Source: Escherichia phage FL12
Sequence record: PP400786
Reading direction: 5' to 3' (one strand)
DNA length: 64,000 nucleotides
Shown: piece by piece, positions 44,623 to 64,000 of the stretch
How positions within the stretch are numbered: the first letter of the stretch is position 1
How the letters are laid out: every line of letters begins with the position of its first letter
Notes under the pieces: generated by a model
Seen by the model: only the letters and a program-made list of their open reading frames with translations
The model's database searches: none
Told to the model about the DNA's origin: nothing
Made by a program: the position numbers and the translations under genes

Positions 44623-45093
44623 TTAATCATGTTTCCACACCCCATCGGTATTTGACCAAAGTCGCTGATTATCTGATCCTCGCCACAGCTTTTTGGTCGG
44701 AAGATTTTTCTCATACTTCCCATCAATAATAACATCAACATATTTAAGCATTTCTAGTTGTTTAATATCTTCAAATTTATATCCTGTCCACAACCAAATG
44801 CTTTTATTGGGATAAAGATTTTTTACTGTTTGAACAATGCAATGAACAACATCTCGGTTATCAGGATAGAGAGGGTCTCCTCCAGTTATAGTTAATCCTT
44901 CTATATAATCATTATTCAAACATTCAATTAATTGTTCTAGTGTTTCACCAGTGAATGGAACGCCATTTCTAGCGTTCCATGTTGATTTATTATAACACCC
45001 TTCACATTTATGCAAACAACCTGTAACGAAAAGAACGACCCTGCATCCAGGGCCATTCACAAAATCGCAAGGATAAAATCTATCATAATTCAT
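44623..45093 (-). CDS. nrdG: anaerobic ribonucleotide reductase activase NrdG (radical SAM)
   Basis: 156 aa as T4 NrdG; Cys cluster CLHKCEGC. Confidence 0.85.
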   Translation of the reverse strand: MNYDRFYPCDFVNGPGCRVVLFVTGCLHKCEGCYNKSTWNARNGVPFTGETLEQLIECLNNDYIEGLTITGGDPLYPDNRDVVHCIVQTVKNLYPNKSIWLWTGYKFEDIKQLEMLKYVDVIIDGKYEKNLPTKKLWRGSDNQRLWSNTDGVWKHD

Positions 45094-46907
45094 TGGTGTT
45101 TAACCCTATGCATGATTTCTTTATTTTTGCCGAGATTAAATCCACGTTCGTTCGGATTTCCCAAATAACCACAAGTTCTTCTTATTGTGTTCATCTTTTT
45201 AGGATCAGTTTCTCCACAAATAGAACAAACAAACCCGTTTTCAGTAGGAGTCATTTCATGGGTACTTCCACACGTAAAACATTTATCTACTGGCATGTTA
45301 ACACCAAAATAATCTAAATGTTGTGCAGCATAATCCCATACAGCCTCAAGACCTTTTAGGTTATTTTTCATATCAGGAAGTTCAACATAAGAAATGTGAC
45401 CGCCTGTCGCAATGAAATGATATGGGGCTTCGCGAGAAATCTTTTCAAACGGAGTAATATTTTCTTCTACTGAAACGTGGAAACTGTTAGTGTACCAGCC
45501 TTTATCAGTAACATCCTTTACACTTCCATATTTCTCAGTATCAAGTTTACAGAAGCGATAACAAAGGTTTTCAGCAGGTGTAGAATACAAGCTAAAAGCA
45601 AAACCAGTTCTTTCAGTCCACTGCTTAAGACGAGCATTCATTTTAGTTAAAATTTCCTGTCCAATATCACGACCGACAAGAATATTCAATTCGTGAATAC
45701 CAATGTATCCTAAGGACACTGAACTTCTACCGTTTTTAAATAACTCAATTATATCATCATCGGGTTTAAGACGAACCCCGAATGCACCTTCTTGGTAAAG
45801 AATAGGAGCAACAGTAGCTTTAACTCCTTTTAATGAACTAATTCTACACATCAATGCTTCAAAACACAAATCCATTCGTTCATTGAACAATTCGGCAAAT
45901 TTCTGTTCATTGAACTGTGTTCCAATATAAGAATCTAATGCAATACGAGGAAGATTCAGTGTTACAACGCCAAGATTATTACGTCCATCAAGAATTTCAT
46001 TACCAGTCGAATCTTTCCATACGCTCAAGAAACTGCGGCAACCCATTGGAGAAACAGGAATAGATGAACCTGTGATAGCTTTATTGTTCTTAGCTGAAAT
46101 AATATCAGGATACATTCTTTTGCTTGCACACTCTAGAGCAAGCTGCTTAATATCATAGTTCGGATCGTCTTTATAAAGATTAACACCTTCTTCAACGAAC
46201 ATAACAAGCTTAGGGAAAATAGGAGTTATCCCATCGCGACCAAGGCCTTTAATACGATTTTTCAGAATTGCTTTCTGAATCATTCGTTCAGTCCAGTCAG
46301 TTCCCGTGCCAAATGTAATTGTTACAAAAGGCGTTTGTCCATTTGAACTAAAGAGAGTATTTACTTCATATTCATAAGCTTGGAACGCATCGTATACGTC
46401 TTTTTCTGTTTTAGATTGGGCATAATTCAACGCATCAGCGATTTGCCATTTTTCTGCATCCTCAATATGTTTTGCATAGGTGCGTTTAACATAAGGAGAA
46501 AGGACTTTGTCTACATTTGCAAAAGTCGTTCCACCGTATTGATGGGAAGCAACCTGTGCAGTAATTTGTGCCATAATTGCAGTAGCAACACCGATTGATT
46601 TAGGAGTTTCAATCTGTGCATTACCGAGCTTAAATCCGTTCTCAAGCATTCCTTTTAAATCTACTAAACAGCAATTAGTAAATGGAAGAGCAGGGGAATA
46701 ATCAATATCATGGAAATGAATAATTCCGCTTTCATGCGCTTTCATAATAAAAGACGGGACCATATTTTTGGCAATGTGTTTAGACACAATACCAGCCATA
46801 AGGTCCCGTTGAGTTGGAAAAACACGAGAATCTTTATTAGCATTCTCGTTCAAAAGGTCTTTATTAGTTTTATGAATCAATCCTTCAATTTCTTTTTCAA
46901 TTGTCAT
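45090..46907 (-). CDS. nrdD: anaerobic ribonucleoside-triphosphate reductase NrdD (glycyl radical enzyme)
   Basis: 605 aa as T4 NrdD; C-terminal Zn-ribbon cysteines and glycyl-radical motif RTCGYLG; uninterrupted. Confidence 0.9.
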   Translation of the reverse strand: MTIEKEIEGLIHKTNKDLLNENANKDSRVFPTQRDLMAGIVSKHIAKNMVPSFIMKAHESGIIHFHDIDYSPALPFTNCCLVDLKGMLENGFKLGNAQIETPKSIGVATAIMAQITAQVASHQYGGTTFANVDKVLSPYVKRTYAKHIEDAEKWQIADALNYAQSKTEKDVYDAFQAYEYEVNTLFSSNGQTPFVTITFGTGTDWTERMIQKAILKNRIKGLGRDGITPIFPKLVMFVEEGVNLYKDDPNYDIKQLALECASKRMYPDIISAKNNKAITGSSIPVSPMGCRSFLSVWKDSTGNEILDGRNNLGVVTLNLPRIALDSYIGTQFNEQKFAELFNERMDLCFEALMCRISSLKGVKATVAPILYQEGAFGVRLKPDDDIIELFKNGRSSVSLGYIGIHELNILVGRDIGQEILTKMNARLKQWTERTGFAFSLYSTPAENLCYRFCKLDTEKYGSVKDVTDKGWYTNSFHVSVEENITPFEKISREAPYHFIATGGHISYVELPDMKNNLKGLEAVWDYAAQHLDYFGVNMPVDKCFTCGSTHEMTPTENGFVCSICGETDPKKMNTIRRTCGYLGNPNERGFNLGKNKEIMHRVKHQ

Positions 46908-58779: not shown

Positions 58780-59166
58780 TTATTCGAGGGAAAGAAGATA
58801 CTTACTCTGATAAAACATTCCAGTAATATCATCTATCGTGCTTTGGATGGCTGGAGGCATTTCTTTATAAATGCTGTTAGATTGGTCTAGTATGCGATCA
58901 ATCATTTTAATTGTGTCGGTAGGAAGTTTACTAGCATCTGGAATTGAAGGTGTGTATTTTCTACCAGAATACCCCAAATATTGCTCACCAAATTTATCAA
59001 TCAAATCTGGCAACTCGGAGAAAATAAAATCGTATGCTTTGTGTCTAGCATAACTTTTAGTTTCAAAATGTGCAGAATGAAAATAAGCTTGTGCAGCCAT
59101 TAATAAACCTAAGTATTCATCTGCCTTTGAAGGTTTTCCACTTTGTGAAAAGTCGCTGAATTTCAT
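58780..59166 (-). CDS. hypothetical protein
   Basis: 128 aa; followed by UUCG hairpin. Confidence 0.5.
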
Positions 59167-59456
59167 TCAGTCTCCAATTTAATGTTCATAATTCTAGCGT
59201 ATGATTGTGCCATCTCCGCGCCTCGTTCTATACATTCAAAATCAGAAGAGCACGGGTCATTTTTATAGGTCGTTCTCATAAAACTATAGAATTGTTCAGA
59301 CGATTCTACGCTTTTATTTTCAAAAAGTGTATAAACGTGCCTAATACCAGATTCCATAAATTTATCAAAATGAGGATCGACATTCGCTTCAATCGGTGGA
59401 GATAAAGCAAACGCTAATCCTAGCATGGCAAATAGTGCCGTTGCTTTTAAGGCCAT
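59163..59456 (-). CDS. rI: lysis inhibition regulator RI (antiholin)
   Basis: 97 aa as T4 RI; signal-anchor N-terminus MALKATALFAMLGLAFALSPPIEA. Confidence 0.75.
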   Translation of the reverse strand: MALKATALFAMLGLAFALSPPIEANVDPHFDKFMESGIRHVYTLFENKSVESSEQFYSFMRTTYKNDPCSSDFECIERGAEMAQSYARIMNIKLETE

Positions 59457-59468
59457 AAAGGCCTCCTA

Positions 59469-59681
59469 TCATTTTTGTCCTGTATTTACTTTATGCCGAT
59501 GCACGGCCTTAACTTTATCAAGGTATTTTTCAAAATTTCGCAATCTAGTATAGTCTGCCGGAGATTGGTTGAGTGATACTTCTCGACGCAAAGCTGAAAT
59601 GATATTTCCAACTTCCCTACGAATTTCATCTAATTGAAGAACAGTAAGATTGCGAAGTTGCTTTTCAGTTAATTGTAGCAT
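59469..59681 (-). CDS. hypothetical small protein
   Basis: 70 aa. Confidence 0.45.
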
Positions 59682-59723
59682 ATATACCCCTTTAGTTAGA
59701 TAAACCTATTTATAACTTTTGCA

Positions 59724-60305
59724 CTAACCGAGCTTTTTGGTTAATTCATTCCAATGTTTTCTACACAAAGAAACATAAATTTCATCACCAATACAGATTT
59801 GATTACCTTCTTTAACTGGTGTTCCATCTTCCATTAATCGAGCTGTCATAATCGCTTTTTTACCGCAATGACAAACTGCTTTTAGTTCAATAAGTTTATC
59901 TGCAATCGCTAAAAGTTCTTTAGAACCTTCAAATAATTTTCCAGCGAAATCAGTCCTTAATCCATAAGCCATAACAGGAACATTATATGTATCAACAATT
60001 CGGCTCAATTGATGCACCTGTTCAGTTTTTAAAAACTGAGCTTCATCTACAAATACGCAATGAATATCTTTTTGTGCTTCAGCCCATTTATAGAACTCGA
60101 AAATATCCATATCATCTGTAATAATATTCGCTTCCTGCTTAATTCCAATGCGAGAAACGACTTCACAGACAGAATCGCGAGTATCAATAGCAGGCTTAAG
60201 AACTAATACACTCATTCCACGTTCTTTATAATTATGCGCAGCAGTCAAAAGAGAAGCAGATTTTCCAGCATTCATTGCTGCATAAGTAAAAATTAAACTC
60301 GCCAT
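59724..60305 (-). CDS. tk: thymidine kinase
   Basis: 193 aa as T4 Tk; P-loop AAMNAGKS; C-terminal zinc-binding cysteines. Confidence 0.85.
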   Translation of the reverse strand: MASLIFTYAAMNAGKSASLLTAAHNYKERGMSVLVLKPAIDTRDSVCEVVSRIGIKQEANIITDDMDIFEFYKWAEAQKDIHCVFVDEAQFLKTEQVHQLSRIVDTYNVPVMAYGLRTDFAGKLFEGSKELLAIADKLIELKAVCHCGKKAIMTARLMEDGTPVKEGNQICIGDEIYVSLCRKHWNELTKKLG

Positions 60306-60314
60306 ATCACCTTC

Positions 60315-60506
60315 TTAAAGCGTATTCACATAAGCTATTAATTCATTTTCTTTCTTATCAAACCGATCAGCAAATTCTTCCTGCTGTTCAGGAGATAGCG
60401 GGCCGTATTCATCATAAAAGGTGTTTGCTTCTGTATGCTCATCTAGAAGTTCATTGATAAGCTCAAACAATTTATCTTTTTGTTCTTTACTCAGACTCAT
60501 AACCAT
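60315..60506 (-). CDS. hypothetical small acidic protein
   Basis: 63 aa. Confidence 0.4.
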   Translation of the reverse strand: MVMSLSKEQKDKLFELINELLDEHTEANTFYDEYGPLSPEQQEEFADRFDKKENELIAYVNTL

Positions 60507-60724
60507 GTCACCTTTAAGCAGTATTCTTCTACATGCTGTTTACGACCTTTCTTATCAATAAAGGTATATTCAACGAATGTTCCAATGTAGTCTTTATCTA
60601 CATCATGTGGACTATTAATTGGACATTTAGTACGGCAAATGCGTTCCCATTGACGAATAATTACTGCCTTATTCTTTGGGTCATACGGATGTGGATAATG
60701 TATATTCATAATAACGGTTCCCAA
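60497..60724 (-). CDS. hypothetical small protein
   Basis: 75 aa. Confidence 0.4.
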   Translation of the reverse strand: MGTVIMNIHYPHPYDPKNKAVIIRQWERICRTKCPINSPHDVDKDYIGTFVEYTFIDKKGRKQHVEEYCLKVTWL

Positions 60725-61173
60725 TCAACAATCACAATTTCTAATTTAGAGGAATATGTATCTAAAATCCCCTCAATAATATCCCAGTTCCCTCTACCTA
60801 TGCCTGCACCAATCCTAGGCACATAGATTGTAGGTTTAATCAGTTTATTTTCACCAAACTCATTTAATTCTAACATACAATTCATTAAAGCGGAATACTC
60901 AAAATTTGGCCCTGGTTGAAATTGAGTATAAAGGTTGAAGCAATACGCTTTATGAGTCCTAAAGTATTTTTCATAGACTGAGTAAGAACCGAGTTTAGTT
61001 ACATCACCCCATTCAGTCTGTAATTTATCAGCTTCCAAAATTTTAGGGAAAGCTTTGGTTAATTGACCCGCTACGCCTGAACCCATAGTATGAAAACAAT
61101 TGCATCCATGCGCAATATTTTTACCTTCAGCGAAAAGGGCGACAATATCGCCCTTGATATATTTTACAATCAT
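60706..61173 (-). CDS. macrodomain protein, TARG1/OARD1-like (putative ADP-ribose hydrolase)
   Basis: 155 aa; YIKGDI...AHGCNCFHTMGSGVAGQL and YVPRIGAGIGRGNW resemble TARG1 motifs (YVKGDL...MGAGIA, PRIGCGLDRLQW) as remembered. Confidence 0.6.
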   Translation of the reverse strand: MIVKYIKGDIVALFAEGKNIAHGCNCFHTMGSGVAGQLTKAFPKILEADKLQTEWGDVTKLGSYSVYEKYFRTHKAYCFNLYTQFQPGPNFEYSALMNCMLELNEFGENKLIKPTIYVPRIGAGIGRGNWDIIEGILDTYSSKLEIVIVDWEPLL

Positions 61174-61517
61174 CTAGTACTCAATCCTCGATTATAAGAA
61201 TCTACCAAACGGTCAACCATTGAATGACAAGCGGCTTTATCTTTCTCCTCCGCAACTGAGCATTCTAAGGTATTCCACTTTTTAGCATATCGTTTTAATA
61301 ATGTATCGTTTTTGTATCTGCTTGATTTATCTCTTTCTCCGTCTTTATATGCATATATTAATTTCTGTGCAAATTCAGCTTGGCATGCTTTATTTTTCCC
61401 ACAATAATCTGCCGCAGTGCGGTTTACATATTCTCTAATTTCAGTATATGATGTATCTGCTGACGCAGAAGCAGAAAATGAAATTAATCCTATACATAAA
61501 ACCAAAATTTTAGTCAT
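61170..61517 (-). CDS. secreted small protein
   Basis: 115 aa; signal peptide MTKILVLCIGLISFSASASA; four Cys. Confidence 0.5.
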   Translation of the reverse strand: MTKILVLCIGLISFSASASADTSYTEIREYVNRTAADYCGKNKACQAEFAQKLIYAYKDGERDKSSRYKNDTLLKRYAKKWNTLECSVAEEKDKAACHSMVDRLVDSYNRGLSTR

Positions 61518-62055
61518 TTACTATTTCCAAAAGTTTATTATTTTTAAGGTAATTAGCCTTTTCTAGGACTTCAGAAGCATATTTAGAACCAGCTTTAACA
61601 TTCCATCCCGAATTATAAGAGGATATTGCTTTTCTTATATCACCCTTATGTATATTTAACCAATAAGAAAGTTCAATGTACGCCCAGGAAGCTGAATTGG
61701 ATCGTTTATTCAACATTCTTTTTATTTCAGCATCGGTCATATTATAACCAAGTTCCTTAACTCTTGCTCGCATAGTAGGCAAATAATTTTGGAACATTCC
61801 GTAGGCGTGATGCTTTGGTTTAGATTTTAAATTAACTCCGCCAGAGCTTTCTTGCCATAAAATGGCTGCCATTATATGACCTAATCCACTCTTGTGGATA
61901 TTTTTGTGTGTTTTATATTTTCCATCCTTAGAAAATTGTTCCCCGAATTGATATGCATAACGCATGTTATCGAGTTGGACATTACTGAAAGTATGCTCGG
62001 AGCTATGTGCCATCATTGAAATGGCCAATAGACCAGCGAGTAGTGCTTTTCTCAT
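61510..62055 (-). CDS. secreted protein with lytic-transglycosylase-like motifs
   Basis: 181 aa; signal peptide; ILWQESSGG and SSYNSGWN resemble SLT-domain motifs. Confidence 0.4.
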   Translation of the reverse strand: MRKALLAGLLAISMMAHSSEHTFSNVQLDNMRYAYQFGEQFSKDGKYKTHKNIHKSGLGHIMAAILWQESSGGVNLKSKPKHHAYGMFQNYLPTMRARVKELGYNMTDAEIKRMLNKRSNSASWAYIELSYWLNIHKGDIRKAISSYNSGWNVKAGSKYASEVLEKANYLKNNKLLEIVND

Positions 62056-62062
62056 GCTTACC

Positions 62063-62524
62063 TCATTGAGTTTTAATTACTGCTTTAGAAGCCTTTCCTG
62101 GTAAACGACGACTGTTAATAATTGCCATCCTGCATTGAAGTGACGGGTTTTTGAACTTCTCATTAGGCTTACAAACTGTAAATCCAAGCCAAAGATTTCC
62201 ATCTGTGATTTCTAAACGTCCAGGACGATATTCAACCCCATCAATAAAATCCTCATCAATGTCAGGACGCGGAGGCATACTTAGGAATTCATTAACTTCT
62301 AAAACATGGTCTTTTATTTTATGGAATAATTCAAAAACATATGTCTCATCAATCTCCCGTTGAATTGCACGATCAAGAAGATGTTGAGAATATTTTAGAT
62401 GAAACGATGAGACCCCTGCTGCTTTTGATGCCTCACGAATCTCATTGTTAATTTGACGAAACTCCGACTCAAAGTGACGACGAAGCTTATTTCGACGGAT
62501 AAAAACTTCTGTATTGATAGTCAT
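62063..62524 (-). CDS. regB: RegB endoribonuclease
   Basis: 153 aa as T4 RegB; N-terminus MTINTEVFIRRNKLRRHFESEF; own early promoter. Confidence 0.65.
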   Translation of the reverse strand: MTINTEVFIRRNKLRRHFESEFRQINNEIREASKAAGVSSFHLKYSQHLLDRAIQREIDETYVFELFHKIKDHVLEVNEFLSMPPRPDIDEDFIDGVEYRPGRLEITDGNLWLGFTVCKPNEKFKNPSLQCRMAIINSRRLPGKASKAVIKTQ

Positions 62525-62550
62525 GTTATTCTCCTCTTAACTGATAGAAA

Positions 62551-62582
62551 AATTATACCACAGTCAAGAGGAAAAGTAAACA
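62551..62582 (-). promoter_or_regulatory. T4-type early promoter upstream of regB
   Basis: Minus strand GTTTAC plus 18 nt plus TATAAT; GAGGAG RBS before regB ATG. Confidence 0.5.
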
Positions 62583-62859
62583 GTTATTCTTTAAATCTAA
62601 TCAATTTATTCATAGACTTTGAAACTTCGGCACGAACCTCATGTAGATTTTTGAGCTGTTCAAGACGCTGCGTATAGTAAGCAATTTCATCTTCTTCGAG
62701 ACAGTCCTGCGAATCTTCTTTAAGATAGCGTGCATAGTCCTGGAAAGCGTTACGGACTACTTCCTGGAAGTCATCAAGACTTTGAATTTTCTTAGGAGCA
62801 ACAGATACACGACGAGGTGCAGTATAATACTCATAACCAAACCCTGCGCTTAATTGGGC

Positions 62860-63162
62860 CTAATATTTTTCCTCTGGTTGGAACACAGCACGACAAGCCC
62901 ACATACTGGCTTCTTTGAGTTTCGTTTTAGCAATAGTTAACTGATCGAGGCTTTCGGCGTAATTCTTCGCGAGTTCATCATCTTCACAGCTATCAAATGC
63001 TTCCCAGAATTCATCATATAAAGCATCAAAGATAAGTCCTAAACGAACTTCAGCGTCTTTGATAGCATTCACTTTACCGATTTTCTCTTCAGTATGTGGC
63101 TTATAACCCTTAATGTCTTCAATCATATTTGACTTCCTCACCAGTACATAAATCATATTCAA
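62860..63162 (-). CDS. hypothetical protein; frame continues past an in-frame TAG for 91 further codons
   Basis: 100 aa ORF ends at TAG (62860-62862); downstream segment 62587-62859 is open in the same frame and homologous to the first half. Confidence 0.45.
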   Translation of the reverse strand: MNMIYVLVRKSNMIEDIKGYKPHTEEKIGKVNAIKDAEVRLGLIFDALYDEFWEAFDSCEDDELAKNYAESLDQLTIAKTKLKEASMWACRAVFQPEEKY

Positions 63163-63340
63163 CTAAACGAATAGGTTCATGAATGCCATATCCCTGAACA
63201 GAAATTTCTGTCGTAGGATAAATTCCATCAATATCACCCATATTCCACGCTTCATTAAATTGCTGTTCGCCTGAATTACTAAACCATTCTGCGAAAGCAT
63301 TTAGCACATCTTCAGAACCTTCAATAATTATCTTTGCCAT
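63119..63340 (-). CDS. hypothetical small protein
   Basis: 73 aa. Confidence 0.4.
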   Translation of the reverse strand: MAKIIIEGSEDVLNAFAEWFSNSGEQQFNEAWNMGDIDGIYPTTEISVQGYGIHEPIRLVEYDLCTGEEVKYD

Positions 63341-63702
63341 TACAAACTCTCGGTGAAGGTACGAGCGATAACGTCGCGCTGCTGTTCCGGAGTCAGAGAG
63401 TTAAAGCGAACTGCATAACCGGATACACGGATGGTCAGCTGCGGATATTTTTCCGGATGCTTAACTGCATCTTCCAGAGTTTCACGACGCAGAACGTTAA
63501 CGTTCAGGTGTTGACCACCCTCAATTTTAACTGTAGGTTGTGTTTCAATTTCAATTTCACGGGCATGCAAACCATAGAAAATTTCTGGGTCTACAATAGC
63601 GTCTTCTTTAAAAGTCTTAGAGACAATAATCCGGGCTTGAATACCGTCTTCAAAATAAATAGTACCTTTATGCGTGCCTTCAAGAATTTGATATGCTTTC
63701 AT
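63340..63702 (-). CDS. grcA: GrcA/YfiD-like autonomous glycyl radical cofactor
   Basis: 120 aa; C-terminal about 60 aa ([60 protein letters not shown]) with glycyl-radical motif RVSGY matches remembered E. coli GrcA; that half has GC-rich host-like codons while the 5' half is AT-rich. Confidence 0.8.
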
Positions 63703-63709
63703 ATAAACC

Positions 63710-63976
63710 TCAATTAGAAAATAAATTTATCCAAGATTGTTCTTTAATTAAAAATGGCTCAGAATCATATGCCATTAAACTTTGGGTGATTAGTCCTTTA
63801 AAAGGTCCATCAATAAATTCCATGGTAAAATATGGAATTTTATTCATTAGCCGTGCATTAGGAGCAGTACACAAAACTCTGCATCCTTTGAATACGCCTT
63901 TTTGTAATTTGTATTGCTTAGGATAAAATTCGCTCAAGACGTTGTTATTTGCCAAAATTTCAAAATGATTCACCAA
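63710..63976 (-). CDS. hypothetical protein
   Basis: 88 aa. Confidence 0.45.
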
Positions 63977-64000
63977 TTTATTTTTAATAGTTTTTGGCGA

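Follow-up and report, generated by a model that had tools for sequence, protein, structure and literature searches.

Host-like DNA inside the glycyl radical cofactor gene vs.6 of T-even phages: a 3' domain very probably overwritten from the host gene grcA

Recombination between host and phage within genes is reportedly known from psbA and psbD of marine cyanophages (in work credited to Zeidner, 2005, and Sullivan, 2006), and T4 is said to be able to incorporate homologous plasmid DNA into its genome from a length of ~50 bp (work credited to Singer, 1982, and Selick, 1988). T-even phages in general recombine very actively. Here we analyse vs.6, a small glycyl radical cofactor gene of this phage group, in a stretch of 64,000 nucleotides of Escherichia phage FL12 (sequence record PP400786; the whole stretch is hereafter called the window), where one domain of the gene has very probably been overwritten by homologous recombination with the host gene grcA. 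The gene is known and annotated, as are its family and its biochemical role: the T4 ortholog is UniProt P13316 (GRCA_BPT4, formerly Y06I) and vs.6 was found conserved in six of six T4-like genomes (PMC1524935). According to a later paper, Knappe and co-workers found that YfiD, i.e. the E. coli GrcA protein, and T4 Y06I restore O2-cleaved PFL after radical installation by PFL-AE (Wagner 2001, via PMC8683613). In YfiD, the stretch 1-60 is disordered and helps in binding and activation, and residues 61-127 have the fold of PFL 693-759 (PMC8683613). The discovery of the gene by itself therefore adds nothing, and the value of what follows lies in the evolutionary pattern.

An earlier note on this DNA, made from the sequence alone, had proposed a GrcA/YfiD-type glycyl radical gene here, and the open reading frame (ORF) agrees with it exactly: 120 codons on the minus strand with an ATG start and a TAA stop, whose product matches Pfam PF01228 (Gly_radical) over residues 60-101 (E=2e-18). 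Residues 61-120 (EGGQHLNV...RVSGYAVRF...TESL) are the same as E. coli GrcA 68-127 throughout (60 of 60 positions), as the note had proposed for the C-terminal ~60 residues including RVSGY. The likeness extends to the DNA: positions 63356-63519 of the window form a perfect run of 164 nt with grcA nt 205-368, and over gene nt 179-363 the blastn search that the note had proposed aligned 179 of 185 nt (96.8%), with a match to grcA in each of the 5,426 complete E. coli genomes. When the whole window was compared with these genomes by megablast, this tract was the only match, besides a weaker one of the same stretch to pflB. Since pflB DNA is only ~80% identical to the tract, versus 97% for grcA, the donor would be grcA and not pflB. 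An exact run of 164 nt of host DNA in the genome of a virulent T4-type phage, the sole such stretch in 64 kb, is a rare kind of evidence.

The 5' 178 nt of the gene gave no E. coli match by blastn and, when laid ungapped on grcA, are identical at 71 of 178 positions. Their GC content is 0.34, and 0.22 at third codon positions (GC3), compared with 0.51 (GC3 0.48) in the 3' half; E. coli grcA has similar values to the latter over the same region (GC 0.50, GC3 0.43), and the 64-kb window as a whole has a GC content of 0.342. The GC-rich, host-like 3' half and AT-rich 5' half described in the earlier note are thus both borne out, and neither an absence of similarity to host grcA nor a uniform composition was found. 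Composition changes at the same place as identity. A maximum chi-square test with Karamvirus vs.6 as the phage parent and E. coli grcA as the host parent placed a breakpoint between gene nt 177 and 186 (0 of 2000 permutations reached the observed value, P<=0.0005), with host-like states at 13 of the 77 informative sites to its left and at 43 of the 45 to its right; the Karamvirus gene, taken as a control, showed no breakpoint by the same test (P=0.21). At the other end, mismatches to grcA occur at gene nt 348, 351, 354, 357 and 358, and the tract stops just upstream of these terminal phage-type codons, so that the replacement begins and ends within the ORF. Since the ATG of the next gene, vs.5, overlaps the vs.6 stop codon, the host tract ends within vs.6 and does not reach its neighbour. 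What is seen here is therefore a mosaic gene, with a near-identical host tract, a supported breakpoint and phage-type codons on both sides.

One may ask whether such a 3' half could arise with no transfer of DNA at all, through extreme purifying selection and converged codon usage. The C-terminal 60 residues are indeed nearly invariant in the GrcA proteins of Enterobacterales and Pasteurellales, and all differences within the tract are synonymous apart from one in T4 (R73H); because the peptide is almost invariant in bacteria, identity of the proteins proves nothing. Synonymous sites, however, vary freely, with 15 synonymous differences over 49 codons between E. coli and K. pneumoniae, and phages that lack the host tract (unpatched phages) are only 65-84% identical to host grcA (GC3 0.05-0.47) while encoding almost the same peptide. 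Moreover, the tract fits specific host species, E. coli or K. pneumoniae, and we regard convergence of this kind as extremely improbable.

For comparison across phages and hosts we used a host panel consisting of the grcA genes of 82 species, the 5,426 E. coli genomes and two Klebsiella records. The junction is common to Tequatrovirus and Mosigvirus, whose tracts have 0-3 differences from E. coli grcA in 171 nt (three differences in the window, one in T4, and none in either the Tequatrovirus Aplg8 or the Mosigvirus RPN187). Over the same 171 nt the distance of E. coli to E. albertii is 7 positions, that to Citrobacter 11 and that to K. pneumoniae 21, so the phage tract is nearer to E. coli grcA than is the grcA of its sister species. 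In these two genera ~170 nt, from codon E61 up to the last few codons of the gene, thus appear to be an internal patch of E. coli grcA DNA. The comparison with related T4-like phages suggested in the earlier note shows a locus shared with T4 and separates patched from unpatched lineages; it also narrows that note's idea of a recent capture or recombination of a host segment. Recombination with the host stands as the best explanation, whereas a private or recent event does not, with the junction present in hundreds of Tequatrovirus and Mosigvirus genomes including T4, and what took place was an internal replacement within an old phage homolog rather than the capture of a new gene. A separate junction in Mosigvirus, suspected from a longer BLAST match (grcA nt 155-384), turned out on site-by-site comparison to be an extension of the BLAST alignment, the junction being that of Tequatrovirus.

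Another explanation is an assembly artefact in which host reads were merged into phage assemblies. Frameshifting tandem duplications do occur inside the tract in two Tequatrovirus genomes, of 79 nt in vB_Eco_Some (L186:223-670) and of 57 nt in vB-Eco-KMB39 (L187:301-720). Yet many laboratories have contributed phage records with the same in-frame junction, 744 in all with the T4 reference among them, and it also occurs in IMG/VR contigs; the tract is bordered on either side by phage-specific synonymous states, and the T4 protein made from this sequence has been studied biochemically (via PMC8683613); the artefact retains hardly any probability. In vB_Eco_Some and KMB39 themselves the annotated vs.6 is split or altered by the duplications, which may be real or may be mis-assembled from host grcA reads.

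T4 Vs.6 has the same host-like tract and junction as the window gene, from which it differs at 16 nt, and the host-like states in T4 reach three more sites (9 nt) towards the stop codon (TTT ACT GAA, versus TTC ACC GAG in the window). Elsewhere the terminal codons mix host and phage states: TTT ACT GAA AGT TTG in T4, TTT ACT GAG AGT CTG in Aplg8 and ...GAG AGC TTG in one further sequence (L106). Codon 73 of the T4 reference gene (L002:2717-2719) is CAT (His), whereas all other sequences compared, from phages and from bacteria including E. coli grcA, encode arginine there (CGT or CGC), making R73H the sole amino-acid change seen inside an E. coli-type tract.

Evidence that the replacement did not happen only once comes from Klebsiella phages of the genus Jiaodavirus, which have the same 5' lineage and the same junction but are K. 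pneumoniae-type over grcA nt 202 to ~359. Over these 158 nt they differ from K. pneumoniae at one (L125), two (15882-6-4), three (Nispero) or seven (KSKp) positions and from E. coli at 19-23, and in 106 phage records the stretch matching K. pneumoniae grcA nt 202 to ~370 has an identity of 95% or more. E. coli-type and Klebsiella-type phage tracts differ from each other at 22-25 positions and the two hosts at 21, and the donor can be assigned by host: E. coli-type in Tequatrovirus and Mosigvirus, K. pneumoniae-type in Jiaodavirus. As a single ancestral capture cannot yield a near-zero distance between phage and host in both lineages, the tracts point to at least two host-to-phage replacement events. 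The K. pneumoniae grcA used here was taken from a 5.37-Mb PLSDB entry named "plasmid unnamed2" (L098, CP125156.1) that is evidently a chromosome; no Klebsiella-labelled GrcA was found among the best 120 protein matches, and K. pneumoniae was absent from the results of a genome-contig scan that yielded 80 species. Fragments of K. aerogenes NCTC10006 "plasmid 2" (L099, LR134122.1) likewise carry chromosomal genes, and their grcA has a frameshift after codon 93. The phage vB_Kpn_AM_K2, considered for a time as a Slopekvirus with a Klebsiella tract and hence as a third lineage, proved to be a Jiaodavirus.

These data also bear on the possibility that an ancestral T-even phage captured the whole of grcA once, after which the non-essential N-terminal half diverged fast and the C-terminal half remained unchanged. 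Such a history would fit the distant homology to GrcA that the N-terminal half of the phage protein still has, but not the abruptness of the switch, which falls within ~9 nt in synonymous sites and base composition alike, nor a tract nearer to E. coli than E. albertii is. In addition, the 5' half is ~72% identical at the nucleotide level to that of the Klebsiella Jiaodavirus phages and must therefore predate the E. coli-specific tract, Jiaodavirus combines this 5' lineage with a Klebsiella-type tract, both halves are diverged in the unpatched lineages, and no phage record covers at least 80% of E. coli grcA, a host-identical full-length phage grcA not having been found. We consider such a single capture highly improbable. 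Still less can be said for the opposite direction, namely that bacteria gained the 3' half of grcA from phages, which would explain the shared tract itself and nothing more specific. The bacterial tract follows bacterial kinship, with distances growing from E. coli to E. albertii, Citrobacter and Klebsiella, its composition is that of the host, forming a GC-rich island in a phage genome of 34% GC, and the phage-type terminal codons occur in 0 of the 5,426 E. coli genomes, none of which reaches 99% identity to the window; the probability of this direction is negligible.

By tblastn, homologs were found in 1,591 phage records, from many genera of Straboviridae, T5-like phages and a jumbo Yersinia phage. 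The unpatched forms belong to Karam-, Krisch-, Slopek-, Pseudoteven-, Biquarta- and Angelvirus, to T5-like and jumbo phages and to other phage lineages in IMG/VR; their 3' halves differ from each of the 82 host grcA genes at 24-50 of 171 nt and their GC3 is mostly low. The homologs of T5-like phages (Demerecviridae), Krischvirus, Karamvirus, Slopekvirus and the jumbo phage thus resemble vs.6 in family, in the RVSGY domain and in being a widespread accessory gene, but none has a host-identical tract. Tequatro-, Mosig- and Jiaodavirus and related genera have in common an N-terminal lineage of the form MKAYQILEG...ARxIVSKT..., and since a phage homolog was already present, host DNA replaced only part of vs.6. 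Taken together, we find it very probable that vs.6 is a phage cofactor gene of the GRCA_BPT4 type, an old homolog in which homologous recombination with the grcA of the current host has replaced the conserved 3' domain on at least two occasions.

The replacement would have occurred during infection, through homologous recombination of the phage gene with fragments of the host chromosome or through gene conversion by them, with the fragments produced early in infection acting as donor DNA. The patch starts at codon E61, the point at which phage and host sequences become alignable. Recombination would be restricted to the conserved C-terminal domain because only there is homology sufficient, and independent events would for the same reason share one 5' junction. 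An unpatched allele such as that of Karamvirus is ~74% identical to grcA, so a first event would be expected only rarely. E. coli-type and Klebsiella-type tracts, on the other hand, are ~88% identical to each other, and once a tract is nearly host-identical re-conversion would become much easier, so that the tract would tend to follow the current host. Such replacements may be close to neutral, since the encoded peptide hardly changes. The host tract begins at GrcA residue 68, so the mosaic boundary adjoins the boundary between the disordered and the structured domain, which is also where homology for recombination starts; structure and recombination coincide in this spare-part protein.

Compared with the systems mentioned at the outset, vs.6 resembles cyanophage psbA and psbD in being a phage copy of a host metabolic gene with patches from host alleles and host-specific mosaic segments. 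It differs from them in belonging to a virulent T-even coliphage that degrades host DNA and has modified cytosines, in having a patch limited to one domain of a 120-codon gene, and in having a flanking half that is far more diverged from the host. With T4 marker rescue, or insertion-substitution recombination, it shares the copying of non-phage DNA, in short homologous pieces of tens to hundreds of bp, into the genome, but those are laboratory constructs with perfect homology, whereas here the donor would be the natural host chromosome and the first event would have crossed ~75% identity. The Klebsiella counterpart at the same junction makes this clean natural evidence of homologous recombination between T-even phages and the host chromosome despite host DNA degradation and modified cytosine. 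It is a very clean new example of a known phenomenon, host-phage intragenic recombination, in a known gene. We found no description of nucleotide-level, host-specific patching of vs.6 in the literature, where the matches were citations of the biochemical paper only, although an earlier mention in older T4 papers is still possible. As a simple locus, vs.6 lends itself to measuring host-phage exchange, and its tract may help to infer the recent host genus of a T-even phage.

Some comparisons hint that conversion has gone on repeatedly. Tequatrovirus and Mosigvirus have 13-20 differences in the 180 nt of the 5' half but 0-6 in the tract; Aplg8 and RPN187 have 20 differences in the 5' half and none in the tract (P=5e-6), or 10 and none when only synonymous differences are counted (P=0.002). 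The reverse is seen in Jiaodavirus, where between the closely related KSKp and 15882-6-4 the tract has 8 differences and the 5' half 2 (P=0.05). The 3' end points vary within a genus as well: T4 is host-like up to TTT ACT GAA and the window stops before TTC, Nispero is host-like up to ACC TTT, which other Jiaodaviruses are not, and in some phages the states vary between host and phage from one codon to the next. A search of metagenomes with a 32-nt pattern from KSKp retrieved three bacterial contigs, two of which (L183, L185) carry a Klebsiella-like allele sharing the KSKp-specific states at nt 216, 225, 231, 246 and 327, three of these five sites being built into the search pattern; a 45-nt KSKp pattern had no metagenome match. 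Further downstream KSKp has K. pneumoniae states, so its tract might be a hybrid of two bacterial alleles, which is suggestive only. We therefore offer as a tentative proposal, clearly less secure than the replacement itself, that in T-even phages the 3' domain of vs.6 is a lasting hot spot of gene conversion from host to phage, rewritten repeatedly from whichever grcA alleles are met. If so, the tract would be a natural sequence tag of a phage's recent host species, and direct evidence that even virulent phages that break down the DNA of the host recombine with its chromosome in nature.

Several points weigh against replacement from the host, or against how often we take it to have happened. 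The junction of Tequatrovirus and Mosigvirus could be one event that spread by phage-phage recombination instead of repeated host-to-phage events, and a few tracts with zero differences could have been polished toward the host allele, given the duplications present in some genomes. The host panel is limited, and exact donors within Klebsiella are beyond its resolution, and we infer the mechanism, transfer of host grcA into a T-even genome, through comparison of sequences only. With regard to the cofactor itself, we know of no in vivo phenotype of vs.6. The protein also misses the cut-off of the GrcA equivalog TIGR04365 (IPR011140), with 156.9 versus 170 bits, because its N-terminal half is diverged; positions 25-126 of this NCBIfam profile align with vs.6 residues 20-120.

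As a protein, Vs.6 is a small stand-alone cofactor of 120 residues, of the GrcA/YfiD class (~14 kDa), with a C-terminal glycyl radical domain. With E. coli GrcA (P68066; NMR structure 6OWR) it has in common the C-terminal 60 residues, the 164 nt and RVSGY, and the two align over 6OWR residues 28-127. The phage N-terminal half, in contrast, is 7 residues shorter, only distantly similar and written in phage-type codons: residues 22-60 align weakly with YfiD 28-67 with few identities (ARxIVxK, ED, RE) and the first ~20 residues are not alignable to YfiD. Residues 58-120 align with PflB 697-759 (E=5e-26), within the C-terminal glycyl radical domain of PflB (693-759) that the spare part replaces, and Gly95, in RVSGYAVRF, aligns with GrcA G102 and PflB G734.

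By analogy with the T4 ortholog, to which it is 97% identical in amino acids, the window protein may be expected to rescue PFL. O2 would cleave host PFL at Gly734, the vs.6 protein would bind the cleaved enzyme with its C-terminal domain taking the place of the lost PFL 693-759 segment, and host PFL-AE would put a new radical on Gly95, returning PFL activity; in this way the fermentative production of acetyl-CoA and formate by the host could be maintained during infection in low or fluctuating oxygen. The earlier note had imagined the rescue of oxygen-cleaved enzymes rather within a phage trio of glycyl radical enzyme, activase and spare glycyl radical domain, which suggests Vs.6 as a spare domain for phage NrdD, activated by phage NrdG. 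The nrdG and nrdD genes are indeed in the same window, where the note had put them (44623-46907), and a role in nucleotide metabolism was speculated upon in the 2006 comparative paper (PMC1524935); the only hint toward a link with NrdD is the vs.6 homolog of Aeromonas phage PX29, located between nrdG and nrdC. However, Vs.6 has no significant similarity to the NrdD of the window (BLASTP E=2.6), the radical motif remaining unaligned, its domain is PFL-type, with the GrcA identity and the PflB match given above, and in the reported biochemistry (via PMC8683613) the target is PFL and the activase PFL-AE. The rescue idea thus survives with host PFL and PFL-AE as partners, and the NrdD/NrdG version of it is very unlikely. 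In PX29 (L093:1-960) this homolog and the end of nrdG overlap and nrdC and nrdH come next, so that it lies, unlike in T4, inside an anaerobic nucleotide-reduction cluster.

The window gene and T4 vs.6 are orthologs, with 95.6% nucleotide identity and the same position between vs.7 and vs.5, and the order vs.7-vs.6-vs.5...regB-vs.1 is common to the window and T4 (downstream in the window, regB has 153 and vs.1 has 181 amino acids). The exact protein sequence is recorded as XAO16807.1 of Escherichia phage FL12, and window positions 59000-64000 are ~98% identical to several Tequatrovirus genomes. A promoter scan found no sigma-70-like promoter near vs.6 on the minus (coding) strand, and since none is close by, vs.6 is probably read as part of a vs.8-vs.1 transcription unit. 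At window positions 63710-64000 the vs.7 ortholog is cut by the end of the window, and the ORF list holds only an 88-amino-acid fragment with a TTG start, which had no NCBIfam match. Coordinates are collected in Table 1.

Table 1. Positions of vs.6, its parts and related features in the window.
Feature	Position	Strand	Basis
vs.6 / grcA-like gene (120-aa autonomous glycyl radical cofactor)	63340..63702	-	ORF list, T4 vs.6 match, PF01228
Host-derived tract, gene nt 179-347 = grcA nt 200-368, encoding the structured glycyl radical domain	63356..63524	-	blastn, identity figures, breakpoint test
AT-rich 5' half of vs.6	63525..63702	-	GC 0.34, GC3 0.22; blastn; weak protein alignment to YfiD 28-67
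3' terminal codons TTC ACC GAG AGT TTG TAA, phage-type synonymous states	63340..63355	-	site-by-site comparison with grcA
Gly95 codon, radical-bearing glycine in RVSGY (= GrcA G102, PflB G734)	63418..63420	-	alignments to 6OWR and PflB 697-759; codon from sequence
Shine-Dalgarno GAGG, 5 nt 5' of the vs.6 ATG	63708..63711	-	read from sequence
vs.5 ortholog, ATG overlapping the vs.6 stop (TAATG)	63119..63340	-	ORF list and T4 annotation
nrdG	44623-45093	-	NCBIfam TIGR02491, 198 bits
nrdD	45090-46907	-	NCBIfam NF006732, 908 bits

Some further observations concern homologs elsewhere. In the T5-like phage DT57C (L091:41-669) and the Biquartavirus Aeromonas phage L9-6 (L090:101-660) the grcA homolog stands directly 3' of phage tRNA genes, either tRNA-Ile and tRNA-Met or tRNA-Met alone. 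One IMG/VR sequence (L128) holds a full bacterial grcA (MITGI...), nearest to Yersinia with 15 differences in 171 nt, and others (L170-L177) hold GC-rich, C-terminal PFL-like ORFs starting MHGRDQKGAV; these bacterial-type sequences may be host flanks or prophage-adjacent DNA. The shared tract can also mislead assemblers and annotation, as in the two genomes with duplications and in phage contigs labelled as E. coli or Salmonella GrcA. In NCBI, several phage-type Vs.6 proteins of 118-120 amino acids on contigs of ~165-170 kb are labelled GrcA of E. coli, Salmonella enterica or Shigella sonnei, and these are phage contigs filed as bacterial assemblies.

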